A stretch of 32,000 bases of DNA from an uncultured Lentisphaeria bacterium (GCA_951812855.1 OX638337.1:1890001-1922000); one strand, 5' to 3'; shown: positions 16,759 through 31,958, counted from the stretch's first letter. A program made the numbers and translations. Notes: generated by a model from the sequence alone, not told the origin.

Positions 16759-16771
16759 TTTTAGGCTTAAT

Positions 16772-17143
16772 TCAACGGGAGGCACAGCACATACACAATG
16801 TCGTTTCAGGTATTGCCAAAATTCGATCAATCGGTATGGCGTTTCCACAGTACATGTACTGGCCAAATTCAGGAGTATTTGCCTTGTTCAGGACGGTTTC
16901 TAATTGAACTTTGCGTGTTTGTGCCCTGGTTAATATTTGCTCATTTATCATTTTATTTCCTATAGCATCCATCCGACTGACTCGTCCAATTGCATTGGCA
17001 GGACTGACAGGCTGAGTTAATTTTTCCAGATATCTAATTTCTTCATTGGTTCGATTTATTCCTGCACATAAGTTTTCAAAGGCATGGGAAATATTTAAAT
17101 TAAATCCTTTTAACAGCAGGCCGGGAACACACAAAATCCGCAA
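16772..17143 (-). CDS. DksA/TraR-family zinc-finger protein (degenerate first Cys pair)
   Basis: PVSPANAIGRVSRMDAIGNKMINEQ followed by the C-terminal finger GQYMYCGNAIPIDRILAIPETTLCMCC. The usual CxxC...CxxC reads YxxC...CxxC here. The N-terminal start is uncertain. Confidence 0.6.
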   Translation of the reverse strand: MRILCVPGLLLKGFNLNISHAFENLCAGINRTNEEIRYLEKLTQPVSPANAIGRVSRMDAIGNKMINEQILTRAQTRKVQLETVLNKANTPEFGQYMYCGNAIPIDRILAIPETTLCMCCASR

Positions 17144-17396
17144 ACCTTCTGCTGAAGCAAAAACTACGGTCTATTCAGTTGTTATTGAATCAGATTTAAG
17201 AACTGTTTTTAAGCTTGATGGTGATATGGTTTACAGTACAGACATAGGAAGCCATGACAGTTACAGATAATATCATTTAATATCATTTCAGGATTATTTG
17301 TATCATCAACTATTCAACTTCGCCTATTTAATTTCATTTACTCGATACCTTTCCAGGTATTTTTCTACAACGATACTTCATAACGTGTTATGGGTG

Positions 17397-18133
17397 TCAG
17401 GATTTGCAGAAAGTTTTTACAGCACAAGCCACGTTCTGCCCATCTATTGCTGCGGAAATAATTCCTCCTGCATAGCCATTTCCTTGGCCACATGGAAAGA
17501 GTCCCTTTATCTGATTGTGCATTAGGGGTTGAGGATCTCGTGGAATTCGGACTGGAGAACTGGTGCGGCTCTCAGTTCCGATTACATTTGCTTCATCTCT
17601 GTAATATCCATGGATTTTACGGCGGAAATCCGCATTGCTTCCTGCAGATGGCGATAGATTTTCGGTAATAACTCGTGCAAAAAATCGGGATATAGTCGTG
17701 GAATATAGGACGAGTTTGACAGGTTCTCTGAATTTTCACCATTCACAAAATCTGTCAACCAATAAACGTAATGCTTTGTAAATATCACCTCGTTTGTGTG
17801 AACGAGTATATAGCTAACCGTCTGAATAGGTACCGGCTCTGCCTTCTCCAAAACAATAATTGGAATGTGGATTGACAACAGCAAATTTCTGAATGGTTCT
17901 TAAATCTTTTCGGCACGATTGAATATCCTTTCCCCGTTCAAAAATCATTGGCTTTAAGCCCGGTTCAATCAGTTCCAGAGCAGCGAAATAACCTGCTGGT
18001 CTTGAACCGACAATGATTATTGGAGTTCGTTCTTTTACATGTTGAAGATTATTTATCAAAACAGATTTGGGAGGAGGAGCGTCATCAATATGTACAGCTG
18101 CCAGAAGACAAACAGCGGGCAGTGAACGGCGTG
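17397..18133 (-). pseudogene. decayed FAD-dependent oxidoreductase (COG2509-like)
   Basis: The N-terminal piece is IIIVGSRPAGYFAALELIEPGLKPMIFERGKD...FGEGRAGTYSDG. It is followed by an in-frame TAG (17814-17816) where homologues have Lys, then LYTRSHKRGDI. The middle piece LTDFVNGENSENLSNSSYIP...LLPKIYRHLQEA is in another frame. The C-terminal piece DFRRKIHGYYRDEANVIGTESRTSSPVRIPRD...GLFPCGQGNGYAGGIISAAIDG is back in the first frame. Total span is ~245 codons, versus roughly twice that remembered for intact family members. Confidence 0.7.
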
Positions 18134-19066
18134 CTAATCAGTTTTTGCTTCGTTTTTTATTGAAGAAAGTATTGTCCCTGAGGGGTTATTAAAAAGACGT
18201 CGGGTCGGATAAGCAAAATCAATTGTGTCAAATTTTGCAAATTCAGTTAATATATCTTTCCAGATATTCTGTTCAGTGCTGCGACGTTTCCTGGGCTCAC
18301 ATAAGAACCGCAGCGTTAACAAGACCCCACTGTCTTTTACCGTCAAATATACCGTAGGTGTGAGTTTGTTATAGTGAATAAGATAGGTGTGGGCCGCCTT
18401 TTTTACTTTGGACTTGGCTGAGCCAGACAAGTGAGCTGCATGACTGTTTGCAATTTTTAACAGAATTTCATTAGCGTTTTTCCAGTCACTTTCAAATGTA
18501 ATAAGGACAGGTATTTCGTGCCAGATGTATTGAAAGCCTTTAGAATAATTCGCCAGATGTTCCTGAAACACCCGCCCATTCGGTACATGTATCACCCGGC
18601 CTGTACTTTGGTCAGCATCAACCCAATTTCCTATTTCCATCATGGTAAACATAAAGATCCTCTGATCGATTATGTCGCCTTTTACCTGACCAATCTCAAT
18701 GCGATCTCCCACTTCAAATGGACGACGCCAGAGAATGAATGCCCAACCGGCAAGGTTGGCAATCGGGACTTGTAATGCAATTGCCAATCCTGCTGATAAT
18801 AACCCGAGAAATGTTGATAGAGTCTGAATCCCTTCAAACCAAATCCTTCCTGCCAGCACAAAAGCAAGAAAGAATAAAACATAGGTAACAGATTTTCGCC
18901 ACCGATAGAGAATTCTCTCGTTTTCAGTTTGTTTAGAGGCCACTCTTAAAATGATGAAACGGAGAATAAGAACAGCAAAAATTATAAAAAATGATAACAC
19001 TGATTTATATAATAATAACGGACTGATTCCAAAGGTTGACTGAACCCAATCAATAATTTCATTCAT
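18134..19066 (-). CDS. MscS-family mechanosensitive ion channel protein
   Basis: N-terminal TM helices, then the MscS beta-domain motif FEVGDRIEIGQVKGDIIDQRIFMFTMMEIGNW...GRVIHVPNGRVF. ATG 19066 overlaps the upstream stop by 8 nt (ATGAATGA). The tracked start at 19084 is a TTG alternative. Confidence 0.8.
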   Translation of the reverse strand: MNEIIDWVQSTFGISPLLLYKSVLSFFIIFAVLILRFIILRVASKQTENERILYRWRKSVTYVLFFLAFVLAGRIWFEGIQTLSTFLGLLSAGLAIALQVPIANLAGWAFILWRRPFEVGDRIEIGQVKGDIIDQRIFMFTMMEIGNWVDADQSTGRVIHVPNGRVFQEHLANYSKGFQYIWHEIPVLITFESDWKNANEILLKIANSHAAHLSGSAKSKVKKAAHTYLIHYNKLTPTVYLTVKDSGVLLTLRFLCEPRKRRSTEQNIWKDILTEFAKFDTIDFAYPTRRLFNNPSGTILSSIKNEAKTD

Positions 19067-19781
19067 AGTTGAGGACCTTTTCAAGTTCAGGTATTCTCTT
19101 CCAGGTTTTTGTTCCCCAGAAGATCAATGTTGCTGTCATAAATGTTAGAAAAAAATGTGTGAAATCTAATGAGAGAAAAATATTCCATGTATCATATAAT
19201 GTATGGATGGTCACAGAAATAATATACCCGAATATTAATGGTATAATACTTAGATTTTTAAATGATTTGACTGTGGCCAGTCCATGGATCATCCCCATGC
19301 TCCCATGCAGAGGAATTGCAATAAACCCTCTGCTTATTAACAACTCCAGTTCTATATGGGAATATGCAATTAAATTCTCGACAGCTCCGAATGCTAATCC
19401 CAATGTAACAAATCCTAATACAATATCTGCATGAAAAAGGCGGAATTTCTTTGTCGGGATAACTGATAGAACGAATATACCAAAGGACAGTTTCCAAAAT
19501 TCCTCCCCCAGACCAGCACCAATAAAAAAGCCGAGGAAGCTATGCAGTTTATTACTGGAATAAACCCATAATTCTGTTTCCCGACTTAAAAATAGATTAA
19601 ATATAAGTGCGGGTACAGTCGAGAATACCCCGGAAATTCCAAATAAAATACAAAGTCCTGCAGGAGGTTTCAGCCAAAAATATTTTGATTTTACCATCCC
19701 GATGTAAATCAGTATACATGACCAGGAGCAAAGTAGCAGCAGGCTCATTACGAATTTTCCTTTTTGATTTCGCTTAGCCAT
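19059..19781 (-). CDS. PrsW-like (CAAX-protease superfamily) polytopic intramembrane protease
   Basis: ~7 hydrophobic helices. Motifs GLGEEFWK (EExxK), IPLHGSMGMIHG and HTLYDTW (HxxxD) are arranged as in PrsW-family proteases. An alternative start at 19748 forms a TAATG overlap with the upstream stop. Confidence 0.6.
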   Translation of the reverse strand: MAKRNQKGKFVMSLLLLCSWSCILIYIGMVKSKYFWLKPPAGLCILFGISGVFSTVPALIFNLFLSRETELWVYSSNKLHSFLGFFIGAGLGEEFWKLSFGIFVLSVIPTKKFRLFHADIVLGFVTLGLAFGAVENLIAYSHIELELLISRGFIAIPLHGSMGMIHGLATVKSFKNLSIIPLIFGYIISVTIHTLYDTWNIFLSLDFTHFFLTFMTATLIFWGTKTWKRIPELEKVLNYE

Positions 19782-20740
19782 TGATTTACTCTTTGGTGAA
19801 CTGCCGGATCCAGCGATCCGGATTTCAGTGCTCTCTGATAGGCTTCATATGCCGATGCGTAATCTTCAACATTTTGAACCATTCGCCCATGAAGTGTATG
19901 GAGTAAGGCTGAATCCGGATAAATTTTGTGTAAACTTATAAAGTCCGGCATGAAGGTTTCGACATAAAGCCAATCCGGATAACAGGTTTTAATGTGGTCA
20001 ATCATGATTAAAAAATCTCTATGATTATCCTCCACTGAAAGAGTAATTAATAAGCTTAGATAAACATTTCCAAATGCACGGCCCCCGGCAGGCCATTCAT
20101 TATAAGCCTGAGTAAGATATAGTCTTGCCTTTTTGGCATTGCCATTTAGAAGATACGATACACCGGCTGAATACAGGTCTTCGAAAAACGTATACTCCGT
20201 GTTTGTTAAACTGATTCCGGATGCTTTCAGAGCAGATACGATTGTCTTGTTATTTCTGTCATCCTGATATTTGAACCATAGCAGTTCATTGATAAATCTG
20301 CTCTCTTCGTATTTACGAAAGGCACCGTCAATCTTTAAACCCTTAATGATGTGCCATGCATCCTCTTCGGTCAGCCCATATCGGTCTATTAGGATTAATT
20401 GAGCCAAAATGGTTTCTCTGAGCCTGAGATGATGTTTATTTATAGTGGACCCGGTCGGAGATCCATAGCGTGCAGCGTTACTCTTTTTGATCGCATCAGG
20501 AAGGGCATTATTCTCTTTAATACCCCGGAAATCATGTGATCGTGTTTCAATTCGCCCCGGATCAAACAGCTTTTCAAAAAAACCCTGTTCTCCTGCTTCG
20601 TTATTTTGATTTTGACTCAATTGCTGCAAGAATTCTGCATACGGGTCACGCTGGAAAAAATGATAGCTCAATGACAGAATAATGCAGAGAAAACTTGCAG
20701 TGACTATCAGAAATCGTAGTAAATATTCTTTTGAAAACAT
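19748..20740 (-). CDS. membrane-anchored helical-repeat (TPR-like) protein, function unknown
   Basis: Single N-terminal TM (LLRFLIVTASFLCIILSLSYHFF). The helix-rich remainder has TPR-like stretches (AKKARLYLTQAYNEWPAG...; DYASAYEAYQRALKSGSLDP). I recognise no enzymatic motif. Confidence 0.45.
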   Translation of the reverse strand: MFSKEYLLRFLIVTASFLCIILSLSYHFFQRDPYAEFLQQLSQNQNNEAGEQGFFEKLFDPGRIETRSHDFRGIKENNALPDAIKKSNAARYGSPTGSTINKHHLRLRETILAQLILIDRYGLTEEDAWHIIKGLKIDGAFRKYEESRFINELLWFKYQDDRNNKTIVSALKASGISLTNTEYTFFEDLYSAGVSYLLNGNAKKARLYLTQAYNEWPAGGRAFGNVYLSLLITLSVEDNHRDFLIMIDHIKTCYPDWLYVETFMPDFISLHKIYPDSALLHTLHGRMVQNVEDYASAYEAYQRALKSGSLDPAVHQRVNQWLSEIKKENS

Positions 20741-20779
20741 GACGTATATTCCGGCTCTATACTTTGATCAAGCATCCCT

Positions 20780-21427
20780 TCATTGGGCTTTAATTGTTGT
20801 AAGATTTTCATCATATTCACCGATTGAGTAAACGACATCAAATGATTTTGGATCATCCAAACGGGGTGTCCAGCCAACTTCTGCACCATTCTCGAGTAAA
20901 TACTCACGTACTTCTCTAAATTCTGTAAAACATTCCTGCCAGGTATGAAATACATAAAAAAAATGTTTCGGCGGAAAATCTCTTAGTATTTTGTCGAGAA
21001 TTTTCACTGTTTTACAGGATTCATTAAGTTCAGCACCACCGTATTTTTTAAGTTTAAATTTAAACCGATAACCGGTAAATGTCGGTGTCAATTCGATGAC
21101 AGACTGCACGCCGTTTTTTTCCAAACTGAGACTTTCAATGACATCCCCTTTTTTGACTTCCTGAGTTATTGCTTCAACCAGGTCCTGTTCAGGAAGCATA
21201 TAAATCCGGTCATATTTAAGGCAGATTGTCAGGGACTGTTTTTCAGGTACATATGCCAGGGGAAATGAGATAGATTTATTCGTTTTTTTAACGATCCCTA
21301 TTTTGTTGTCGCTTTTGTAATTGACGATGATTGCGACGCATGCAAGGAGTATCATCATACCGGCGACGTTAGAAATAATATCAACAAGTGCACTGAAATC
21401 AACGCTGATTGACTGGTGTTGCTTCAT
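20780..21427 (-). CDS. single-pass membrane protein, ExbD/TolR-like topology (second copy)
   Basis: I place the start at ATG 21427 (MKQHQSISVDFSALVDIISNVAGMMILLACVAIIV) because AAGGAG lies ~12 nt upstream. This start overlaps the preceding gene by 29 nt. The N-terminal helix resembles the ExbD 'D..f.LLiFF' helix. The soluble domain is longer than in canonical ExbD. Confidence 0.45.
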   Translation of the reverse strand: MKQHQSISVDFSALVDIISNVAGMMILLACVAIIVNYKSDNKIGIVKKTNKSISFPLAYVPEKQSLTICLKYDRIYMLPEQDLVEAITQEVKKGDVIESLSLEKNGVQSVIELTPTFTGYRFKFKLKKYGGAELNESCKTVKILDKILRDFPPKHFFYVFHTWQECFTEFREVREYLLENGAEVGWTPRLDDPKSFDVVYSIGEYDENLTTIKAQ

Positions 21428-21950
21428 GGAAAATATCCTCTCCTTCGAAAATCGGGAGTGATCCTGTTCGCAGTGGGAGTTTATGATTATTGATGATGTA
21501 TTGGACAATTGTTGCTGTATTTCCACCTTCGGGTTCGACCCACAGGATGAGAGTGTTCTGCTGCCGTGAATAACTTAATTTTCGGTTTTCAATTGTTTTT
21601 CCTTTAATAAATTCCAGAAATGCCCGACTCTTTCCGGTTAAAAAAACTCTTTTGTCATTTGATTTGATCAATGCAGCAAGTTCAAATAATGAGATATCCT
21701 GCCGGGTATTGTGTTCATCCAGCCAGGATAACATCGATTTAGTACATCGCATATGAAAGGGTATGAAATTTGCCGGTATTCCCACAAGTTCAACAGTCGA
21801 CAATTTCTTTTTTTCGATTCGTTCTTCAATCGAAATTCCGATTGTTGTTAACGCCATGACACTCATTAATCCAAGCATGATTGATAAAAAAGGCAATGAG
21901 GGTATTTGAAAACTCTGGTCACGGTATTTTAATCGGGTTCGTTTACTCAA
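21399..21950 (-). CDS. single-pass membrane protein, ExbD/TolR-like topology (first copy)
   Basis: TTG start, a basic N-terminus (SKRTRLKYR), then the helix IPSLPFLSIMLGLMSVMALTTIG as in ExbD/TolR. It lies immediately downstream of the MotA/ExbB-type gene. The similarity is in architecture only, not a confident motif match. Confidence 0.45.
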   Translation of the reverse strand: MSKRTRLKYRDQSFQIPSLPFLSIMLGLMSVMALTTIGISIEERIEKKKLSTVELVGIPANFIPFHMRCTKSMLSWLDEHNTRQDISLFELAALIKSNDKRVFLTGKSRAFLEFIKGKTIENRKLSYSRQQNTLILWVEPEGGNTATIVQYIINNHKLPLRTGSLPIFEGEDIFHEATPVNQR

Positions 21951-22031
21951 TTTAGATAGAATGGGTTAGAATTGCAGTTTTGGCATATCGTGCTCAGTAT
22001 CACTAATTCCAATTAAACAGCAGATATACAG

Positions 22032-23006
22032 TTATATATCAACTTTGTTTTCAGGTTCACTCTTGATGACATCACTGTTTTCTTGTTCTTCAATCGTATC
22101 ACTATCATTTGAAGCAGAGGTTTCGAGGGAATCTGAATTTATTTCTTCTTCAATATCTTCGGGTGAAATAAGAATTTCTGTGGCAAATCGTATAAAATAC
22201 TTATCAACTTGTTCTAAAAATAATTGGGAATGCCGTTTAAGAAGGGTCGCAAAAGCAAGCAGGGGTATTACCATAGCAAGACCAACCAGTGTGGTATGAA
22301 ACGCAACACCTAAACCTTGTGCTGTTGCAGTTAATCCGGCAGAAAATCCTAAATCACTTCCCCTCGCAACGACTTCTGAAAATGATTTTAATGCCTGAGT
22401 CATTCCAAAAACGGTCCCTAAAAAACCGGCCGTAGGTAAAAGCCATATTAAAAATTGTGTGATGGCAAACGAATTTTCGAGAGAATCCCAATCTGTTTCA
22501 GCATGCTGCTTTAAAACTTCCAATATCCTTGAATCCGCAGGATTCTCTAACTGTTTTGCTAAAATAATCCAGTGAAGACGCTGGTAAACAATCAGGTTAT
22601 TAAAGGATCCCAATTCATTAATTTTGATAATTTCTTTTACTCGATTTAATATATCATCGGAGGATTTGAATTCAGTAGAAAGAATTTGTCGAACTGTTCG
22701 GAATGCATTGAGTTGACGCGACAAAACATTCCATTTGAATATGATTATAAACATTCCGCAGATCGCCAAAATCAGAATAGAATTTGAAATTTCATCACTA
22801 AAAACCGTTTCAAAGGGGATATTGAATTTATGTCGGGCAAATGTGAACATTAACCATAGAATCAGCGACCCCGAAATCGCATATAAATTGAAATCTCCCT
22901 TCCAGGGCGATGCATCTAATAAGTATGCGTGACAGGAAGGGCAACGAAGATGATCCCTGGTCAGTCTTGTTTTGCATTCAGGACATGGTATATCTGTTTT
23001 GTTCAT
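22032..23006 (-). CDS. MotA/TolQ/ExbB-family proton channel with N-terminal zinc ribbon and acidic C-terminal tail
   Basis: CPECKTRLTRDHLRCPSC (CxxC-x10-CxxC) at residues 8-26. Two TM helices, a ~100-aa loop, then the MotA_ExbB signature LLPTAGFLGTVFGMTQAL...GLGVAFHTTLVGLAMVIPLLAFATLL. The tail EEEINSDSLETSASNDSDTIEEQENSD is acidic. Confidence 0.8.
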   Translation of the reverse strand: MNKTDIPCPECKTRLTRDHLRCPSCHAYLLDASPWKGDFNLYAISGSLILWLMFTFARHKFNIPFETVFSDEISNSILILAICGMFIIIFKWNVLSRQLNAFRTVRQILSTEFKSSDDILNRVKEIIKINELGSFNNLIVYQRLHWIILAKQLENPADSRILEVLKQHAETDWDSLENSFAITQFLIWLLPTAGFLGTVFGMTQALKSFSEVVARGSDLGFSAGLTATAQGLGVAFHTTLVGLAMVIPLLAFATLLKRHSQLFLEQVDKYFIRFATEILISPEDIEEEINSDSLETSASNDSDTIEEQENSDVIKSEPENKVDI

Positions 23007-23588
23007 TTATAATCAGTTATAGATTGTTAGATTTGATTGTTGCAAAAGGTAAGTTAACGGGTATTCAAAAATTTACTGCATCAATAATAAAATCGGTTGG
23101 TTGAACAGACGGGCTTATGGATATCGAGATCTTGAGTATTTTAAGCCTAAGATCTTCGATCTACCCAAAATGCAGATTGTCAAATCCCTATGATTTTACA
23201 GATTCTTGTAAATAACCAGTTACAGGCAATCCGGTATAGAATTGATTCTGACGATAGTACTCTAATTCTGCGATTTTATTGGGAGTAAAAGAACATATTT
23301 TAATTAAAGGATTGGATTAAAATAGTTCTGTACGTTATCAACCAACTGAAATTCAAAGCTATTTAATTGATATGACATCTTGAATAATAAATATTTAAAT
23401 TAAATAAAACGGATTGTAAAATATATTTATAGTGAAGTAAATATAAAATATATCTAATCTGATATAAATATTTTAAATGTAAGCAGCACAGAAAATGTGT
23501 TATTTTGCTTAACCGATATTATCACCTCAGTAACAAAATATATGACCTGCCGGGATTTATTATTGGTGAAAGGGGTACGCAATAGTAC
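23007..23588. promoter_or_regulatory. 582-bp AT-rich divergent control region between the membrane operon and the cas operon
   Basis: Flanked by divergently oriented start codons (23006 minus, 23589 plus), so it must carry both promoters. It contains very AT-rich phased ATATA/AAATAT runs (23380-23480) and an imperfect hairpin at 23481-23510. No ORF of 60 aa or more and no CRISPR repeats. Confidence 0.5.
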
Positions 23589-24251
23589 ATGGAATTTAAA
23601 CAAGCATTTTTAAGATTGAAATTTCAGGAAGAGTGGAACGGCCCAAATGCAGCTCACCTGCTTAGAGGGGCGATTGCCTCGGCATTTCCTGCTAATGACC
23701 TGTTTCATCAACACAATGTCAAGGGTAAGGAAATCTATCGTTATCCCAGGATACAATACCGGTGGGATCAAAAAGATGGTATTGTCGTCGCCTTTGGCGA
23801 TGGCACAGAAGCATTACCTGAATTATTTGTAAAGAGTATGCCTTTAACTCTTAATGGGCATACTCTTCATATTGCAGAAAGCCTTTTTGAATTTCGCAAG
23901 GCACATATAAAAATCGCCGATTCGCTGATTGACTACTATTTCCGATCTCCGTACTTACCATTAAATCAGGATAATTACATACGTTATTTGTCAATGAATG
24001 TTGTTGAAAAGAAACAGGAATTGCGACGTTTATCAACTGGAAATATTCTTTCCACTGCCAAACAATTAGGAATTCGATTTAATCAGAGAGTTTATACCGA
24101 TTTCAGAGTGCGAAAAAGTCTGCCTTGTACATATAAACATAATCAATTGCAGGGATTTCTTGGAACGCTTGTTACCAATGTAGACATGCCCGAAGATTTT
24201 GCCATCGGCAGGGCTGTTTCTCATGGGTATGGATGGATAAAGAGAAAGTAA
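23589..24251 (+). CDS. cas6: Cas6-like RAMP endoribonuclease
   Basis: First gene of the cas operon. N-terminal LRGAIASAF...YRYPRIQYRW pattern and C-terminal glycine-rich loop IGRAVSHGYGWIK, typical of Cas6 RAMPs. The 220-aa size fits. Confidence 0.7.
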   Translation: MEFKQAFLRLKFQEEWNGPNAAHLLRGAIASAFPANDLFHQHNVKGKEIYRYPRIQYRWDQKDGIVVAFGDGTEALPELFVKSMPLTLNGHTLHIAESLFEFRKAHIKIADSLIDYYFRSPYLPLNQDNYIRYLSMNVVEKKQELRRLSTGNILSTAKQLGIRFNQRVYTDFRVRKSLPCTYKHNQLQGFLGTLVTNVDMPEDFAIGRAVSHGYGWIKRK

Positions 24252-24254
24252 ATT

Positions 24255-26051
24255 ATGAATTCTATAGTTTTTAGTAAAACATCGAATATTTTTTTAAATT
24301 CTGGGATAATAGCTCTGAATTACTATTTAGATATTTGTAAAAATAAATCAGATAAAATTTATGATTATACTCATAAATTAACAGAGGATGAATTGAAAAT
24401 TGAATGTAAAGAACTTTTTCCGTTATTAAAAGAGGTCTATTATGTGATGGGAAAAGAGTTGTATGATACAAGCGGAAAAAACGCAAAAGAAAAAGAAGAA
24501 AAACACTATTTTAAGAAGGAACCTTTTAAAGCCTCCCGAATGGCAAAAATGAAGACATATGGAATTGCAGCTTTAATTACAAATGACCAACAACCAATTT
24601 CGAAAAATAAAAATGATGCAGATAAATTCATAGAGATTTTTAAAGAAGAGCCTGACTTCGCTAAAAAAATAGCTGAGACTTATTTAAAGGATGGTAAAAA
24701 ACTAAAGGGATTTGATATTTTAAATTCTGGTAAGGTAATAAGGAATAATGATCAAAAAAGTGGTGACTCAAAAATTTACTTAAATGAACCATATATTAAA
24801 ATTACTCGACTCGACGATTTTGATAAGAGGTATTTTGAGAGAGGTGATAAGAAATGTTATTTGACAGGGGAAAGCTTTAAGAAATTGGTCGAAGTTAAAA
24901 GTACCTCACCTTTCTTATCTGGTTCCGGCCTTAAAATTTTTGATTCATATTTAAAAGAGACTTCTCGGAAGATTAGCTGGAAAGCGATGTATTTAAGTCG
25001 ATTCTCACCCAAACTTGGTCTCTATTCATACACTAAAGGTTTAGACAGCTTAATGTGTTATTATTTTGACTCAGATAATCTGATAAATCTCAATGAAATA
25101 TTTCATCAGAACCTTTCATTTTATAAAGATGAAAGGGAACTGATCAACAATAGTTATGAGAGTAATTTCAAATTGTATAATTTTTCAGAACAAAATGAAA
25201 TATTATTCATGCTTATCTATACTTTTTACAAGCAGTTTTTTATAGAATGTGAGCTTCAAACCTCTAAAAGTAAAAAATATTCTCTAATGGGAGATTCCGA
25301 TTTAGAAGATCTGCCGCCAGTTTCATTAATTACATTCAAGGCAGATAAATTTGCATCTACAATGAGACCCAATTCATTTGAGACCTTTAACCATTTTAGA
25401 TACATCATCGGATTAATCTCTTTTTTTGAAAAAAATGAACTTAACATTCAACAAGTGCTGTCAAGCCTAAAATTTCTAAAAAAATCGCAGAATGAAGCAA
25501 AAAATAAATATAGATTAGAACGTCAAATTCGAAACAAAATTCTCGGAAATATTCTAAGTAGAAAGTCTATTTCAAGTGAACTTAGCAATCTATTTTACAA
25601 ATGTTACAGTCAATTAATTGCCCGGGATAGTATTAAACACAAATACAAACAATTTCATCAATTAATGAAATTGGCAAAGTTATATGAACCCATCATAAAT
25701 TTTGGAGGGAATTTAGATATGAATAAAGAAATACAGGAAAAAGCTATTAAGCTAGGAATCTCTATTGGTATGGAAATATTAAAATTTGAAAATAGTGAAC
25801 GGAAACCGGGTAAAGACAAAGAAAATGCTCGACAAGGAAGAAAGTATGTGATTGGTTTGAACAAGTCTGGAACTCTGGAAAAATTCTGCGAAGCGATTGT
25901 ACGAATTCAGTCAAAGTATTGTTTGGTAATAAGTAAAGAATTGATACAAAATCTAAGTGAAAACAATTTTGAATGTGTCAGAAATTTTGTAATAATAGGT
26001 GCATTGAATACAATCAACCCTGCATTACAGAATAAGCCCCAAAATGCATAA
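24255..26051 (+). CDS. cas8b: type I-B large subunit (Cas8b/Cst1-like), highly divergent
   Basis: Called mainly from position (between cas6 and cas7) and size (598 aa). The N-terminal NIFLNSGIIALNYYL resembles the start of Cst1-type proteins. It is Lys/Asn-rich and has no CxxC pairs. Confidence 0.6.
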   Translation: MNSIVFSKTSNIFLNSGIIALNYYLDICKNKSDKIYDYTHKLTEDELKIECKELFPLLKEVYYVMGKELYDTSGKNAKEKEEKHYFKKEPFKASRMAKMKTYGIAALITNDQQPISKNKNDADKFIEIFKEEPDFAKKIAETYLKDGKKLKGFDILNSGKVIRNNDQKSGDSKIYLNEPYIKITRLDDFDKRYFERGDKKCYLTGESFKKLVEVKSTSPFLSGSGLKIFDSYLKETSRKISWKAMYLSRFSPKLGLYSYTKGLDSLMCYYFDSDNLINLNEIFHQNLSFYKDERELINNSYESNFKLYNFSEQNEILFMLIYTFYKQFFIECELQTSKSKKYSLMGDSDLEDLPPVSLITFKADKFASTMRPNSFETFNHFRYIIGLISFFEKNELNIQQVLSSLKFLKKSQNEAKNKYRLERQIRNKILGNILSRKSISSELSNLFYKCYSQLIARDSIKHKYKQFHQLMKLAKLYEPIINFGGNLDMNKEIQEKAIKLGISIGMEILKFENSERKPGKDKENARQGRKYVIGLNKSGTLEKFCEAIVRIQSKYCLVISKELIQNLSENNFECVRNFVIIGALNTINPALQNKPQNA

Positions 26052-26096
26052 CAACAAAATATATCGGTCTAAAACAATCAACCGGAGAAAGATAAA

Positions 26097-27002
26097 ATGT
26101 CAGAAAGAGAACTAAACGCAAACAGTATAACAATTACATACTTGTCAAAAGTAACTTTTGCCAGCCTTAATGGAGCAGATAAGGACATTGATAACATCAA
26201 TCCCATCAAAAAAATCACATTGGATGATGGCAAAGAATTACCTTATATTTCTTCGCAGGCCATTAGAAGAGCTCTGCGGAATTCTTTGATCGATGCAATG
26301 GGATTCGATAAATCAGGAGTTCAGCAAGCAAGTGCTGATAAAGGTGCTCCTAAAACTCAAATGAATCCGGCAAAATATATCGAAGATGACCTATTTGGTT
26401 ATATGGATGCGTCACCGGGAAAAGATGGCGGACCAGGTAAATCAAAAATAAGGACTTCACCAATAAGAGTCGAATCTTTAGTTGCAATATCTGACTACAA
26501 AGGTGATTTAGATTATGCAACTAATTTTATGGGTAATAATGGGGGTGCTAATCCGAATATTTTTGAAACGGAAATTCATTCTGGTATTTATAGAGGCACC
26601 ATATTAATTGAGCTTGACAGAATAGGTCGTGGACAAGGATTTGATGACAAAGACATCGACAATAAAAGAAGCAAAAAAAGAGTTTTAGCATTTCTTGATG
26701 CATTCAGAAACTTGTGGAGTAGTGGGAGACAGACAAGGTTCCTCGCTGATATTTCTCCTAAATTTGTAACTGCCGCTTTCATGAAAGTGAAAAATCCGAT
26801 TTTCCTAGAAGCTTTAAATGTCGTTGATAAAGGAAAGGTAAATATAACACAACTGAAAACCGTCACAGAAGATTATAAAAAATTTATCAAAGACCATGTT
26901 TTTGCAAGTCAAGCAGCGATATTTGAAACAGATGAAAATGTCAATAGTTTGGATAAAGGTTTTTCTACTATCGAAGGCTGGATAATAGATTATTATGAGT
27001 AA
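26097..27002 (+). CDS. cas7: Cas7 (Cst2/DevR family) backbone subunit
   Basis: SLNGADKDIDNINPIKKITLDDGKELPYISSQAIRRALRNSL matches the DevR/Cst2 N-terminal signature (aslN...PyiSgqa.R..lR). GGAGA RBS upstream. Confidence 0.8.
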   Translation: MSERELNANSITITYLSKVTFASLNGADKDIDNINPIKKITLDDGKELPYISSQAIRRALRNSLIDAMGFDKSGVQQASADKGAPKTQMNPAKYIEDDLFGYMDASPGKDGGPGKSKIRTSPIRVESLVAISDYKGDLDYATNFMGNNGGANPNIFETEIHSGIYRGTILIELDRIGRGQGFDDKDIDNKRSKKRVLAFLDAFRNLWSSGRQTRFLADISPKFVTAAFMKVKNPIFLEALNVVDKGKVNITQLKTVTEDYKKFIKDHVFASQAAIFETDENVNSLDKGFSTIEGWIIDYYE

Positions 27003-27714
27003 TTTCATTTATTGTGCGATTGAAATAAATACCCAATCTTCAACCTTTAGAAATCCAGAATTCCAAAACTTTCACAAAACACTCTTTTTGCCACCCCCTA
27101 CAACCTTGATAGGAATTGCGGGGGCTGGTTTAGGGCTGAGCCCTAAGAGGATTCAGTGTTTTTTTGAAACAGGAATTTGGAAATTAGGTGTCTGGGGACG
27201 ATCTGAAGGCATTGCTAAAGATTTGTGGAAATATGAAACACTAGATATTAAAAAGCCCAAAAGCATAATCCATAAAGAAATTCTACATTCTAATCAATTT
27301 ATATTGATATACGGCACGGATAGTCAAACAGCCATTAATAAAATTTCTGAAGCGTTTTTAAATCCAGTTTATGCATTAACTTTAGGGAATAGTGATTCCT
27401 TGGCAAAGGTATGCAATGTTCAAATAATAGAAGAAACATGTTCAAAAAACATATTACAAAATTGCCTAGTCGATGGCGATATTATTAAAGAAGTTATAGA
27501 AAATACCTCAAATAATCTAGAGTTCTCAATTTACAATACTTCCGATCAAATAACTTATGATTTACCTGTGAAATTTTACTATGAAAGTGATTATGGAATT
27601 CGAAATATTATTAAGAGGAAAAAATTATCTTTTATCGGTAAAAAAATGAAATTGAATCTCAAAAAACAGGGTGTGATTTACAAAAATGAGTTTATACCTG
27701 TTTTTGATATTTAG
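26995..27714 (+). CDS. cas5: Cas5 (Cas5t-like) subunit
   Basis: FRNPEFQNFHKTLFLPPPTTLIGIAGAGLGL matches the Cas5 N-terminal motif (fr.p...sy..PpPst.iG.l.a.lG). 8-nt overlap with the cas7 stop. Confidence 0.75.
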   Translation: MSNFIYCAIEINTQSSTFRNPEFQNFHKTLFLPPPTTLIGIAGAGLGLSPKRIQCFFETGIWKLGVWGRSEGIAKDLWKYETLDIKKPKSIIHKEILHSNQFILIYGTDSQTAINKISEAFLNPVYALTLGNSDSLAKVCNVQIIEETCSKNILQNCLVDGDIIKEVIENTSNNLEFSIYNTSDQITYDLPVKFYYESDYGIRNIIKRKKLSFIGKKMKLNLKKQGVIYKNEFIPVFDI

Positions 27715-27723
27715 AGAATTGAA

Positions 27724-30000
27724 ATGCTTGAAGACATATTAGCGAAAAGTCATCCCAGGGAAACATTAATTCAGCATACCGAAAATATTATATCAAAATG
27801 GGAGGAGCTGAGAAGGCGGTATTCAAGTATTATACTATGCAATGATAAATTTTGGCAACAGTCTTTTTTTTCAGTCTTATTTCATGATTTCGGTAAAATC
27901 GCCGGAAATTTCCAATTTAATATTCACAAAAGCTTAACAAAAGAAAATCAATTATTATTATTAAGGGGAAAATTTATCCCTGGGTTATCATTGGATAATA
28001 ATAATAATAATATCCGACATGAGTTTTTATCCGGACTTTTTTTACTCTATTCAAATCCCGATTTCTATAAAAAATCGCCTCTTGTTGTAATGGCTATATT
28101 TAGCCATCACAAACCTTTAGTAGATACAATATTTCAAGATGATCGTTTTAAGAAATTAATAATAAACCAAGATGATATTGATAAACTAATTTCATTCTGT
28201 TTAGAAAAAGCTAAAACCAAAAAATTTCCAATTGTAATCAATCCAGACCTGGCTCAAACTTTTTGTTCAACCTCTTTGGAAGAACATTATTCCAACTTCC
28301 TGAAAAAATGGAGCTTTAAGAGCCTATTTACAGAACTTGAGCAGAAAGATCGCAGAGTATATATTTGTTATAAAGCAATGCTATGCATAGCTGACTGGCT
28401 TGCATCCGGGGATAACAAACTACCTGTTAATCTTGAATATGATCCTATCTCGTTAAAATCTAAGATTATCAAAAAGTTGAAAACTGAAAATAAAATTGAA
28501 ACTTCTAATGCATTTGAATATAAAAAGTTTCAGCTTGCCAGTTTAAGAAATTCAAGTGTTCTTGCTATTGCTCCAACGGGTAGTGGAAAAACAGAAGCAG
28601 CTTTATTATGGGCTTCGCAAAAAAAAAGTATTGAGAAAATTATATTTTTATTGCCCACCCGCGTCACATCAAATGCAATGTACCGCAGATTGAAATATTA
28701 TTTTGGGCATAACAATACAGCAGTTGTCCATTCTTCAGCATACTTAACTCAAAAAGAATTGGATGATGGTTTTAATAAATTTAACTACCTCCAGGACAAA
28801 ACATTTTTTAAAAACATTACTGTCTGCACAATTGACCAAGTGCTGTCTATAGGTTTCAATGTAGGATATTGGGAAATTAAAACATTCCACCTGAATAATG
28901 CAAGAATAATTATAGATGAAATTCATCTATACAGCCCTTATACATTAGGCTTAATAATCGCAACTATAAGTTATTTGAGTAAAGAATGTAATGCATTGTT
29001 TTACATTATGTCTGCGACAATGCCGGAAAAACTGAAAGGCTTACTATCCAATACTTTTAGGGCTATCGGCTCAAAATTTCAGGTAATTGAAGACAATGAA
29101 CTGCTGAAAGATAAAAGAAATAAATTTTTTATTAAAAACTGTTATGTTGATGAACTAGAAACAGAAATATTAGAAGAATTAAATAGAAAGAAAAAGGTCT
29201 TGTTAGTAGTCAATACAGTAGATGAAGCAATAAGACTTTTTAGAAAATTTAATATGCAACATGGATATAAAACGATATGTTATCATTCAAGATTTATTCA
29301 ATCTGACAAAGTAGAAAAAGAAAGACAAATTCTTTCCCATAATCAACAATCAATTTTATTAATTGCTACACAAGTCGTCGAAGTTTCTTTAGATATTGAT
29401 TTTGACATTTTATTCTCTGAAAATGCACCCATCGATGCAATTGTTCAACGTGCCGGCCGTGTAAATCGAGTTGGGAAAAAATATGGAACGAAGGTCATAA
29501 TCTTCAAACATAATGAGATTTCAGAAAAGATCTACGATATAGCGAATGTTATGGCGAATACATTTGAATCGTTATTGCAGAGAGACGGAGAAGAATTATC
29601 AAACCTTGAGTTAAACGAATTAGTTAATCATGTTTATCGGGATGTAGAAATCGAATCCAGTGAAAATTACAGAGATGGATTAAATAGTTATGAAAAGGTT
29701 CAAAGGCGTTTGCATTATATTAAGGATAACGTAAATATTGATGATGTTTACACTCGAGAGGGGTTAGATACAATCAATGTAATTCCTTCAATGTTTGAAG
29801 AACAATTACACAATGCGGAATTAAACGAAAAAGCTAAGTACGAAATAGCCATCAATTTAAGGCGATTCAGAATGTTGGAATCGTTGGAGAAATCATCTAA
29901 AGATAAAATACACGGATGGATAAACTATGTTGATTGCGAATATAATGCAGATATTGGTTTTGATTTAAATATAGAAAATGAATCAACAATGTTCACTTAA
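27724..30000 (+). CDS. cas3: Cas3 HD-nuclease/helicase fusion
   Basis: HD domain (LFHDFGKI, IRHEFLSG, FSHHKPL) followed by SF2 helicase motifs APTGSGKTEAAL, IIDEIHLY, MSATMP and QRAGRVNR. Confidence 0.9.
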   Translation: MLEDILAKSHPRETLIQHTENIISKWEELRRRYSSIILCNDKFWQQSFFSVLFHDFGKIAGNFQFNIHKSLTKENQLLLLRGKFIPGLSLDNNNNNIRHEFLSGLFLLYSNPDFYKKSPLVVMAIFSHHKPLVDTIFQDDRFKKLIINQDDIDKLISFCLEKAKTKKFPIVINPDLAQTFCSTSLEEHYSNFLKKWSFKSLFTELEQKDRRVYICYKAMLCIADWLASGDNKLPVNLEYDPISLKSKIIKKLKTENKIETSNAFEYKKFQLASLRNSSVLAIAPTGSGKTEAALLWASQKKSIEKIIFLLPTRVTSNAMYRRLKYYFGHNNTAVVHSSAYLTQKELDDGFNKFNYLQDKTFFKNITVCTIDQVLSIGFNVGYWEIKTFHLNNARIIIDEIHLYSPYTLGLIIATISYLSKECNALFYIMSATMPEKLKGLLSNTFRAIGSKFQVIEDNELLKDKRNKFFIKNCYVDELETEILEELNRKKKVLLVVNTVDEAIRLFRKFNMQHGYKTICYHSRFIQSDKVEKERQILSHNQQSILLIATQVVEVSLDIDFDILFSENAPIDAIVQRAGRVNRVGKKYGTKVIIFKHNEISEKIYDIANVMANTFESLLQRDGEELSNLELNELVNHVYRDVEIESSENYRDGLNSYEKVQRRLHYIKDNVNIDDVYTREGLDTINVIPSMFEEQLHNAELNEKAKYEIAINLRRFRMLESLEKSSKDKIHGWINYVDCEYNADIGFDLNIENESTMFT

Positions 30001-30593
30001 TGAATGAATCTAATTTATTCCTAACTCCATCTCATTTATTGGAATATTTATATTGCCCTCGATTCACGTATTATGAATATGCCTTGAATATTCCTCAACG
30101 GGAGGAAAAGCGTTACAAGGTTCAAAAAGGCAAAGATATTCATGAGATTAGAAAGAAGGTTAATGCAGGTTATTTGCGTAAAAAACTTGGAGTTGTTAAA
30201 AAGGAATCAGATGTAGAGTTGAATTGTCCGGACCTTCAATTAAGGGGGAAAGTCGATGATTTACTCTATTTAGATGACGGGACTATGGCCCCGTTTGATT
30301 ATAAGTATGCAGAATTTAAGCAGCGATTGTGGAAAACATTTAGAGTACAGGAAACTCTTTATGCCCTGATGATCAATCATATTTATAAGGTTGAGGTAAC
30401 CCGTGCAATCCTTTGTTTCACACGATCAAAATATAAGATTGTTGAACTGGAATTGAAAGAAAAGGATTATCTATTTGCGAAAGTGAGTCTGGATAATTGT
30501 CTGGAAATAATTCAAAATGGTATTTACCCTGAACCGACGTCGGTCCGGGAACGGTGTAGGGATTGTGCATATAAAAATATTTGTATACAATAA
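30000..30593 (+). CDS. cas4: Cas4 RecB-like exonuclease with Fe-S cysteines
   Basis: N-terminal CPRFTYYEY; nuclease core GKVDDLLYLDDGTMAPFDYKY; C-terminal CRDCAYKNIC. The TAATG start overlaps the cas3 stop by 1 nt. Confidence 0.9.
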   Translation: MNESNLFLTPSHLLEYLYCPRFTYYEYALNIPQREEKRYKVQKGKDIHEIRKKVNAGYLRKKLGVVKKESDVELNCPDLQLRGKVDDLLYLDDGTMAPFDYKYAEFKQRLWKTFRVQETLYALMINHIYKVEVTRAILCFTRSKYKIVELELKEKDYLFAKVSLDNCLEIIQNGIYPEPTSVRERCRDCAYKNICIQ

Positions 30594-30595
30594 TT

Positions 30596-31651
30596 ATGCA
30601 ATTAGTCATTAATTCATTTGGTGCAAGTTTAAATCGAAATGGCGAACTGTTCAAAATAGTGGTTGCTGACAGGAAAGTTGAAGTTGCAGCTCGAAAAATA
30701 CAATCAATTCTGATTACCACCAGCGTTCATTTTACAAGTGATGCAATATTACTGGCAATCGAACATAATATTGATGTTGTACTGCTTGATAAGTATGGTA
30801 AGCCATTTGGTCGATTTTGGAATGGAACAATGGGAAGTACATCAGCTATTCGACGGCATCAACTGAAAATGGCTGAAAGTTATAGCGGGTTATTAGTCAT
30901 TAAAGAGTGGACGAAGATTAAATTAGAGAATCAGAAAGAATTTCTATTAGAACTGCAAAGACGACGTCCCGGGAAAGATGCTTTGTTTATACCAAATATC
31001 AATCGGATCGAAAACGCGATTGTTAACCTTGAATCAGTTGATGGGACACCATTGGAATCGGCACAAAAAATAATGGGTCTTGAAGGAACGGCAGGAGCGG
31101 CCTATTGGTCGGTAATTGGTCAATTGCCACCCGGGGAATTTCAGACAAAAAAGCGTTCTAAACATCCGGCACTTGACCCTTTGAACGCAATGATAAATTA
31201 TGGATACGGTGTCTTATATGCAAAAGTAGAACGTGCTTGTATTATCGCCGGCCTTGATCCCTACACAGGGTTTGTCCATACAGATAATTATAATAAAAAA
31301 TCTCTTGTTTTTGATCTTATCGAACTATTTCGAATTTTTGTAGATCGAACAGTACTAAAGCTTTTTACAGGCAGACGATGTAAAAAGCAGATGTTCAGAA
31401 AAGATTCATCCGGCGCTGTCATTTTAGAAAAAGACGCAAAAGAACTCTTATTAAATAATCTGAATGAATATTTAGCAGAAAAAGTGCGCTATAAAGTGAA
31501 ATCCTCTAAAAAAAACAAAACACGTCAAATTAAGCGATTGGATACAATTCAATCGGAAGCACATACACTGGCCAATCGCATTTTAGGTAAAGACATAAAT
31601 CACATTCCTAAAATTATTGGGATTGAGGAATTATTTCAGGAAACATCTTAA
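30596..31651 (+). CDS. cas1: Cas1 integrase
   Basis: GLEGTAGAAYW, DPLNAMINYGYGVLY and TGFVHTDNYNKKSLVFDLIELFR are Cas1 core motifs. I prefer ATG 30596 (MQLVINSFG), 3 nt after the cas4 stop, over the tracked TTG at 30581. Confidence 0.9.
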   Translation: MQLVINSFGASLNRNGELFKIVVADRKVEVAARKIQSILITTSVHFTSDAILLAIEHNIDVVLLDKYGKPFGRFWNGTMGSTSAIRRHQLKMAESYSGLLVIKEWTKIKLENQKEFLLELQRRRPGKDALFIPNINRIENAIVNLESVDGTPLESAQKIMGLEGTAGAAYWSVIGQLPPGEFQTKKRSKHPALDPLNAMINYGYGVLYAKVERACIIAGLDPYTGFVHTDNYNKKSLVFDLIELFRIFVDRTVLKLFTGRRCKKQMFRKDSSGAVILEKDAKELLLNNLNEYLAEKVRYKVKSSKKNKTRQIKRLDTIQSEAHTLANRILGKDINHIPKIIGIEELFQETS

Positions 31652-31667
31652 AAGAGTTAAGTTTATC

Positions 31668-31958
31668 ATGCTTGTTTGGATTATATATGATATATCCTCA
31701 GATCGCGACCGCACTAAAATTGTGAAGTTTTGCAGGGAATGTGGCTTAATCCGCGTTCAATACAGTGTGTTTTTTGGAAATATCCCTAAAAATGCGGTTG
31801 ATACAATTGCTGAGAAAAGTAAAGATTTAATAGATGTAAAAACAGATGGTGTATTTATTATACCTATCTCTGAGGACGATTTTGAAAAGAAAATAATGAT
31901 TGGCAAAAATTTTGATGAAGATTTTGCAACAGGTAAACAGCAAACTTTAATTCTTTAA
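31668..31958 (+). CDS. cas2: Cas2
   Basis: MLVWIIYDISSDRDRTKIVKFCRECGLIRVQYSVFFG is the canonical Cas2 ferredoxin-fold start. ATG 31668 gives 96 aa, whereas the tracked start at 31617 would overlap cas1. Confidence 0.85.
   Translation: MLVWIIYDISSDRDRTKIVKFCRECGLIRVQYSVFFGNIPKNAVDTIAEKSKDLIDVKTDGVFIIPISEDDFEKKIMIGKNFDEDFATGKQQTLIL

Follow-up and report, generated by a model that had tools for sequence, protein, structure and literature searches.

Introduction

The 5:2 proton motors, which carry inner-membrane energy to the envelope, comprise the flagellar stator, the Ton and Tol systems, the gliding/type IX secretion machinery and the anti-phage system Zorya. These motors are few in kind and every new set of partners has brought new biology. 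Here, we describe six genes (g1-g6) encoding membrane proteins in a 32,000-nucleotide (nt) stretch of DNA from an uncultured Lentisphaeria bacterium (GCA_951812855.1 OX638337.1:1890001-1922000, hereafter the window), where they lie beside a clustered regularly interspaced short palindromic repeats (CRISPR)-Cas locus. Five of them, which encode a MotA/ExbB-type protein with a zinc ribbon (g1), two single-pass proteins (g2 and g3), a single-pass protein resembling tetratricopeptide repeat (TPR) proteins (g4) and a PrsW-family intramembrane protease (g5), constitute an undescribed conserved cassette, in which a predicted proton-driven membrane motor is combined with a membrane protease.

Among published concepts, the closest is that of the motor clusters of the Planctomycetes-Verrucomicrobia-Chlamydiae (PVC) superphylum together with transpore-helix pairs carrying von Willebrand factor A (vWA) domains (PMC12204202). 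The PVC clusters hold a gene for a TPR protein, a tolQ-like gene, two heterologous tolR-like genes and a vWA transducer, and in other TolQ-like motors transpore-helix proteins with domains other than ExbD are proposed to form heterologous pairs (PMC12204202). The present cassette comes from the same superphylum and resembles these clusters in its TolQ-like protein with a heterologous axle-type pair, its TPR protein and its non-canonical domains of predicted periplasmic location. However, it has no vWA protein, its TPR-like protein is membrane-anchored and encoded downstream, and it includes PrsW and a zinc ribbon, neither of which is part of the PVC clusters. Besides, both members of the published transpore-helix pairs carry the Asp (PMC12204202), whereas in the cassette it is found in g3 only.

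Similarities to Tol-Pal and ExbB-ExbD-TonB are also evident, as g1 belongs to the same superfamily with its GFLGTV and HTT motifs aligned to channel segments of TolQ, two coupled single-pass genes lie directly downstream, one with an Asp at the position of ExbD Asp25, and g4, a third single-pass protein, probably combines a flexible linker with a globular domain. In contrast to these systems, g1 of the cassette contains four hydrophobic segments, with a zinc ribbon at its N-terminus, its candidate axle consists of two different non-ExbD proteins with the Asp in one only, and the soluble domains match neither ExbD/TolR nor OmpA-like proteins (g3 by fold, g2 by sequence). Further, g4 carries neither a TonB/TolA C-terminal domain nor the SHLS motif, which contains the essential His of TonB/TolA transducers (PMC12204202), no gene for TolB, Pal or a TonB-dependent receptor accompanies the cassette, and PrsW is integral to it. 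The initial annotation of this DNA had likewise pointed to a membrane module based on MotA/ExbB with no TonB/TolA, OmpA-like or flagellar partner, and this view is borne out.

Characterised PrsW is the site-1 protease of the anti-sigma factor RsiW, and four catalytic motifs (EExxK, FxxxE, H and HxxxD/N) define the family (PMC12943098). Like Bacillus subtilis PrsW (YpdC), g5 passes the Pfam model PF13367 with all four motifs intact, and the candidate substrates encoded beside it are single-pass proteins, as RsiW is; unlike the B. subtilis protein, it has no sigma/anti-sigma pair in its vicinity and shares its cassette with a proton motor. Zorya also possesses a MotA/ExbB-type protein, and the PADLOC models of ZorA match the core of g1, but the cassette has no ZorA tail, peptidoglycan-binding ZorB, ZorC/D/E or defence-island context. 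Our literature search returned no paper that ties PrsW to ExbB/ExbD, MotA or TolQ in one operon and no link between a zinc ribbon and ExbB/TolQ. With respect to the searchable literature, the new elements are therefore the zinc-ribbon ring protein, the co-inherited intramembrane protease and a putative obligate two-protein axle with new soluble domains and the predicted proton-binding Asp in one member. The cassette offers a small gene set for asking whether motors run, or only switch, on a single Asp, and it lets the coupling of proteolysis to motor action be asked.

Results and Discussion

A five-gene cassette is conserved among uncultured lineages

Homologues of g1 were searched, their genomic context was taken from genome and metagenome assemblies, and gene order was scored by tblastn and hidden Markov model searches with the six proteins. 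All the relatives are uncultured metagenome-assembled genomes (MAGs). The close matches were all from Lentisphaerota-type MAGs, some of them deposited as Verrucomicrobia, the best being 79% identical in g1. The order g1-g2-g3-g4-g5 was present in about 12 Lentisphaerota loci (L004, L006, L007, L009-L016 and L019), and g1 identity across the cassette loci ranges from 29 to 79%; in L017 the genes g1-g4 are followed by the end of the contig. The coupling of the genes is conserved as well, with a g2/g3 overlap of 4-29 nt in most cassette loci and a g4/g5 overlap that is mostly 4-37 nt and amounts to 1-4 nt or longer in most lineages, including L019 and L091. The latter, the most distant of the full cassettes and from a metagenome lineage, encodes MotA, a g2-like protein, a g3-like protein of about 20% identity, a TPR-like single-pass protein and PrsW, and here a 4-nt overlap links the gene for PrsW to one for a Mur ligase, with ftsW following (L091:5565-8958).

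In at least 10 other lineages no defence genes were found beside the cassette, whose neighbours there are changing housekeeping and envelope genes, such as glutamate synthase with a MurG-like gene, clpC with mcsB, glycosyltransferases, dnaG, dnaE and rseP. Its behaviour is that of a core element passed on vertically, and the cassette is best read as belonging to the core genome of Lentisphaerota and of at least one other uncultured lineage. Such core-genome contexts, unrelated to defence islands, tell against the defence function that the initial annotation had suggested, in part from the adjoining cas genes.

The same comparison sets g6 apart. An MscS gene follows the cassette in one of the 10 loci where this position could be assessed, that of the 79%-identical relative (L006/L086), and elsewhere the next gene encodes DUF4230, a 542-amino acid (aa) unknown protein or a convergent truA. 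As g6 is present after the cassette only in the nearest relative, the conserved unit is of five genes; g6 is a local addition and nothing ties the mechanosensitive channel to the motor. A co-conserved set of six had been envisaged, with the motor linked to both protease and channel, or else with both of these merely adjacent to it. Of these proposals, the link to the protease holds, since PrsW is co-conserved with g1-g4, while mere adjacency describes the channel.

g1 is a remote member of the MotA/ExbB/TolQ superfamily

The product of g1 matched the Pfam family PF01618 (MotA_ExbB) with 52.6 bits (gathering cut-off 22.9, E=4.8e-14), and 42 homologues with 32-99% identity were retrieved. Four cysteines of the N-terminal zinc ribbon (C8, C11, C22 and C25) were at least 90% conserved in 31 sequences, which upholds the ribbon called earlier even though its matches in Pfam (DZR and Zn_ribbon_3) are both sub-threshold. 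In the same 31 sequences T198, T238 and T239 were invariant, and these columns are presumably the channel-lining, essential threonines of the MotA/ExbB/TolQ superfamily. The family also has an invariant PW just ahead of its first hydrophobic segment, and neither GFLGTV nor HTT varies in it. In profile comparisons with solved structures TolQ was the closest to g1, though weakly (E=1.5e-3), with GFLGTV of g1 placed on GLFGTV of TolQ and FHTT on IATA.

Among the named subfamilies (TolQ, ExbB, MotA/PomA and ZorA) g1 belongs to none. In NCBIfam it scored 29 bits against the tolQ model, whose cut-off is 221, and about 11 bits against the MotA models; g1 is therefore a remote branch of the superfamily. 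As two of its four hydrophobic segments precede the cytoplasmic domain, the zinc ribbon is expected to lie in the cytoplasm.

g2 and g3 form a candidate axle pair

Both g2 and g3 have a single, N-terminal hydrophobic segment, and their position directly after the MotA/ExbB gene is conserved in at least 13 loci. Their membrane helices are the most conserved parts, with about 80% identity to the window sequence vs 41-49% elsewhere (in g2, 79% conserved vs 41% for the remainder). Representatives of g3 are rare, numbering only 25 among 1.84 billion clustered proteins. In 18 g3 sequences, down to about 19-20% identity, the residues D16, S19, N20, G23, P56, W186 and Q215 were invariant. By contrast, g2 has Ser23 at the position aligned with ExbD Asp25 and no acidic residue in the helix of any member, and this Asp/Ser asymmetry between g3 and g2 holds also in the distant loci L091 and L105. 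When compared by hhalign with an ExbD/TolR profile of our own, built from ExbD and TolR seed sequences and 20 homologues from the fetched loci, Asp16 of g3 fell on ExbD Asp25 and PFLSIML of g2 was paired with PFIDVML of ExbD. The position, coupling, topology, helix conservation and Asp of the two proteins fit the role of an axle pair.

These proteins are nevertheless outside the ExbD family and are ExbD-like in position and topology only, much as the initial annotation had described them with its ExbD/TolR-like topology and non-canonical soluble domains. No match to either was obtained in Pfam, NCBIfam or PADLOC. Their assignment as ordinary ExbD was rejected, the Pfam, NCBIfam, PDB-sequence profile and hhalign results being all negative or non-significant, and the profile searches did not turn g4 into a TonB/TolA-type protein either. 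The two were also considered as paralogues, which is unsupported, as hhalign detected no relation between them (P=0.19). An AlphaFold2 model of g3 had a predicted local distance difference test (pLDDT) score of 81.6, with a helix at residues 12-39 and most of the alpha/beta domain scoring 90 or above, and its fold matched no solved structure.

The very end of g3 (20780-20800) is an almost invariant ...(T/S)IKAQ, modelled as a tail of low pLDDT, and may represent a recognition or processing motif. A large branch of g3-like proteins sharing the g3 helix motif SLVDIVSN, with a C-terminal PQ, was also seen on marine metagenome contigs (L092-L171, e.g. L103:6154-8660), with no MotA or PrsW nearby. 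Each marine g3-like gene overlaps the stop codon of a TPR-protein gene, whose product is soluble and about 600 aa long, and has relA/spoT next downstream and FliM/FliN-like genes divergently upstream. Binding of the invariant g3 C-terminus by the TPR domain of g4 was considered and is a weak idea at present. It is countered by the marine TPR partner, which is soluble with no hydrophobic segment suggesting export and is therefore presumably separated from the g3 tail by the membrane.

g4 and g5 complete the cassette

No significant family match to g4 was found in Pfam, NCBIfam, PADLOC or the PDB sequences. Matches to TPR models recur among its 11 orthologues (TPR_2 in eight and TPR_14 in five) but are all sub-threshold; the initial annotation had described g4 as a TPR-like anchor. 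Conservation relative to the window sequence was 45% in the membrane helix, 21% in the linker and 39% in the C-terminal domain, and the linker holds a short conserved motif F[FW]x[RK]L. A three-part layout of membrane helix, disordered linker and globular C-terminal domain, as in TonB/TolA transducers, would agree with both the conservation profile and a low-confidence structural model. A search for homologues with a concatenated g2+g3+g4 profile gave no matches.

The product of g5 matched PF13367 (PrsW) with 45.3 bits (gathering cut-off 23.5, E=9.7e-12), and its EExxK, FxxxE, H and HxxxD catalytic motifs were invariant in 12 of 12 members. It is not the equivalent of B. subtilis PrsW, scoring 24 bits against the NCBIfam model intramemb_PrsW with a cut-off of 225, and no sigma or anti-sigma gene is conserved near it in the loci examined. 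The product of g6 matched PF00924 (MscS beta-domain) with 46.2 bits (gathering cut-off 20.2, E=4.9e-12). The MotA/ExbB, PrsW and MscS calls of the initial annotation are thus each confirmed above the respective Pfam gathering score.

Proposed function and alternative explanations

Our preferred reading, which we hold to be probable though by no means secure, is that g1-g5 encode a lineage-specific 5:2 proton-motive-force machine of the MotA/ExbB/TolQ type with a dedicated protease. In this machine g1 would assemble into a pentameric proton-channel ring with its zinc ribbon in the cytoplasm, and g2 and g3 would be produced in amounts coupled to each other, their highly conserved helices entering the ring as its axle, a heterodimer. 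Protons would be conducted via Asp16 of g3, at whose position g2 has Ser, and the novel soluble domains of the pair would project into the periplasm. The motor may do its work on g4, which is membrane-anchored and TPR-like with a predicted flexible linker and would act as partner or adaptor in the periplasm. PrsW may cleave one of the three single-pass subunits, a cut that could serve maturation or regulation of the motor or could convert motor activity into a signal. A role in envelope maintenance, division or signalling is favoured because TolQ is the nearest solved relative of g1, because the L004 cassette has a MurG-like gene upstream, and because the Mur ligase gene, with its 4-nt overlap with the PrsW gene, and ftsW follow in L091.

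Several results weigh against this proposal. In the hhalign comparison with the ExbD/TolR profile only the N-terminal helix was aligned, and not significantly (P=0.075 for g2 and 0.093 for g3), no Pfam match, including PF02472, was found in 11 g2 or 18 g3 members, and neither protein matched ExbD, TolR or MotB among PDB sequences. A Foldseek search of the g3 model against the PDB returned nothing at E<=0.001, with no ExbD, TolR or MotB in the top 50, and we know of no characterised precedent for a motor axle with a single Asp. The SHLS motif is missing from g4, with no conserved His in the membrane helix of 11 orthologues, as is any TonB_C or TolA C-terminal domain, the only domain signal being the sub-threshold TPR; its AlphaFold2 model is poor and unreliable (pLDDT 43.6 from a five-sequence alignment). 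The cassette encodes no substrate, sigma factor or anti-sigma factor for the protease. Finally, the zinc-ribbon MotA occurs alone in L003/L008, L018 and L172, and g1-g3 occur by themselves in L002 and L105.

These last two loci, which carry g1-g3 without PrsW, are among the points that suit a Tol/Ton-like energiser, in which g1-g3 are the motor, g4 stands in for TolA, TonB or CpoB, and PrsW acts independently, for instance by cleaving an anti-sigma factor encoded elsewhere. The same explanation draws on TolQ as the closest solved relative of g1, on the apparent layout of g4 (membrane helix, disordered linker and globular domain), on the cell-wall and division genes after the cassette in L091, and on the TPR protein CpoB of the Tol-Pal operon and the TPR genes that accompany PVC motors (PMC12204202). 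We nevertheless consider it rather unlikely, since the start/stop overlap of the PrsW gene with g4 is kept in most lineages, including L019 and L091, and at 20-30% protein identity neighbours of unrelated function do not usually persist in this way; moreover, genes for TolB, Pal or TonB-dependent receptors were absent from every locus examined and g4 lacks SHLS. The conserved Asp/Ser asymmetry, seen across all lineages, could instead mean that the cassette is a non-rotary signalling complex and not a working motor, where g1 with the single-Asp pair senses proton-motive force or envelope state and gates cleavage of a single-pass subunit by PrsW, the signal being relayed by the zinc ribbon of g1 in the cytoplasm or by a fragment that is released. 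Such an arrangement would give a use to a conserved ribbon that has no known role in motors, would accord with the site-1 cleavage of the anti-sigma factor RsiW by characterised PrsW (PMC12943098), and has Usp-domain, sigma-54 activator and kinase genes near some copies in its favour. It is, however, an unlikely explanation in our view, as no transcription or sigma factor is conserved with the cassette in the loci examined and the full conservation of those g1 motifs that line up with TolQ channel segments is what an active proton path would lead one to expect.

The initial annotation had also raised a defence module, taken here as a Zorya-like motor that senses phage perturbation of the envelope and has PrsW and MscS as effectors. 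The annotation rightly placed the operon against CRISPR-Cas, as the start of a type I-B cas operon lies at 23589 on the opposite strand, beyond an AT-rich intergenic region of 582 nt, and the PADLOC ZorA models do match g1 (E=3e-7). These matches are limited to residues 181-269, the membrane-helix core shared by MotA proteins, and PADLOC had no match for g2-g6; with a g1 of 324 aa, no ZorA-type tail, no peptidoglycan-binding ZorB and no ZorC/D/E, the cassette is not a Zorya system. The cas genes adjoin the cassette in the source genome only. Where the window has the cas operon beside g1, three relatives carry conserved unknown proteins of 478-543 aa with no Pfam match within about 6 kb upstream of g1 (three in L086:4713-9794, three in L087:2078-7098 and two in L088:6742-9691, the two nearest g1 being divergent), and these are missing from the window. 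Guanine-cytosine (GC) content is 0.37-0.41 in the g1-g6 operon, like that of the housekeeping flank, and 0.29-0.36 in the cas region. As these unrelated genes replace cas in relatives and the GC content of the cas region is lower, the cas locus looks like a variable insertion and its adjacency to the cassette like an incidental one. A location near CRISPR-Cas predicts a defence function only weakly by itself. With defence genes absent beside the cassette in the other contexts covered, and with its behaviour as a vertically inherited core element, we find an anti-phage role highly improbable. A 'BrxC' match in L089 was rejected as bacteriophage exclusion (BREX), being a 116-aa protein among thioredoxin genes; it presumably belongs to the bacilliredoxin family.

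Returning to the machine with a dedicated protease, a more speculative extension, to which we give little credence for now, is a force-gated proteolytic switch, in which the asymmetric, proton-driven motor pulls on a partner in the periplasm and exposes a single-pass subunit to PrsW only under load or upon loss of proton-motive force. If true, this would be the bacterial counterpart of receptor cleavage gated by mechanical force, and envelope state would be reported, or envelope remodelling driven, by a new route.

Organisation of the operon

The initial annotation described six same-strand, tightly packed membrane genes, and the open reading frames (ORFs), all on the minus strand, agree with it in position and spacing (Table 1). 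A gap of 81 nt separates g1 from g2, g2 and g3 overlap by 29 nt, and g3 and g4 are 39 nt apart; g4 and g5 meet as TAATG, the ATG of g5 overlapping the g4 stop, or overlap by 34 nt, and g5 and g6 overlap by 8 or 26 nt. A ribosome-binding site, GGAGAGG, precedes the ATG of g3. The short starts of g5 and g6 are favoured because the orthologues agree with them; in the closest relative a stop codon falls inside the longer g5 extension, and g6 is of 310 aa in the gene call of the source contig. Scans for promoters and terminators gave nothing above chance. A 27-nt unit occurs in two copies with a 78% match at 23417-23471, in the AT-rich region between g1 and cas6b.

Table 1. Positions of the membrane-protein genes and associated features in the window.
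Feature	Position	Strand	Description
g1	22032-23006	-	324 aa; MotA/ExbB/TolQ superfamily, N-terminal four-cysteine zinc ribbon; predicted pentameric proton-channel ring
g1 zinc-ribbon codons	22932-22985	-	Residues 8-25, CPEC...CPSC; predicted cytoplasmic
g1 MotA_ExbB core	22206-22559	-	Residues 150-267; GFLGTV and FHTT motifs
g2	21399-21950	-	183 aa, single-pass; TTG start inferred; ExbD-like membrane helix at residues ~17-40
g3	20780-21427	-	215 aa, single-pass; ATG start; open frame reaches 21526
g3 parts			Membrane helix 12-39, flexible linker, alpha/beta domain 58-205, C-terminal Gln
g4	19748-20740	-	330 aa; N-terminal membrane helix, linker 30-104, all-helical TPR-like C-terminal domain
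g5	19059-19748 (229 aa, ATG) or 19059-19781	-	PrsW-family intramembrane protease
g6	18134-19066 or 18134-19084	-	MscS-family channel, coupled to g5 here; outside the conserved cassette
Divergent intergenic region g1/cas6b	23007-23588	.	AT-rich, read directly; probable promoter region of the operon

Isolated and partial copies of the motor genes

The contexts of the zinc-ribbon MotA outside the complete cassette are varied. One such locus (L105:6274-8636) encodes a zinc-ribbon MotA of 404 aa with a g2-like and a g3-like protein and has no g4 or PrsW; a gene of the histone-deacetylase family lies downstream, and two further ORFs there resemble MoxR and DUF58, as judged by eye from their N-termini only. 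A Usp-domain protein of 414-418 aa is encoded directly upstream of the zinc-ribbon MotA in L002:6560-7816 and L003:6743-7987; TPR matches were obtained in the L003 copy only, and in one of these two loci the MotA gene has no adjoining g2-g5. The orphan gene at L018:9932-11317 comes directly after apparent folE and folB genes (by eye), and that at L172:7651-9491 directly after folB (Pfam FolB). The MAG containing the latter is labelled Rhodothermales, which could be explained by a wider distribution or by a binning error.

Flanking regions of the operon

On the side of the operon away from the cas genes lie purM, a DksA-like ORF and the gene gap. About 1.4 kb (16759-18133) is without a called gene on the source contig. 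Here, the DksA/TraR-like ORF (16772-17143) apparently misses its first cysteine pair, and of two short ORFs (17582-17884 and 17814-18059) the second opens with an apparent nucleotide-binding motif, IIIVGSRPAGY..., noted by eye only. The ORFs of this region may be pseudogene remnants.

The cas operon (23589-31958) is complete and AT-richer than the rest of the window, with the order cas6b, a 598-aa gene, cas7, a 239-aa gene, cas3, cas4 and cas1. The 598-aa and 239-aa genes, which gave no family match, are presumably cas8b and cas5, and cas2 is called at the end of the operon on the source contig. Just beyond the right end of the window (L001:1-866) is its CRISPR array, where a 37-nt repeat, GTTTCAATCCTTGTTGTTTTGGATGTTGTTCTTAAAG, occurs at least 12 times and one spacer is present twice in succession.

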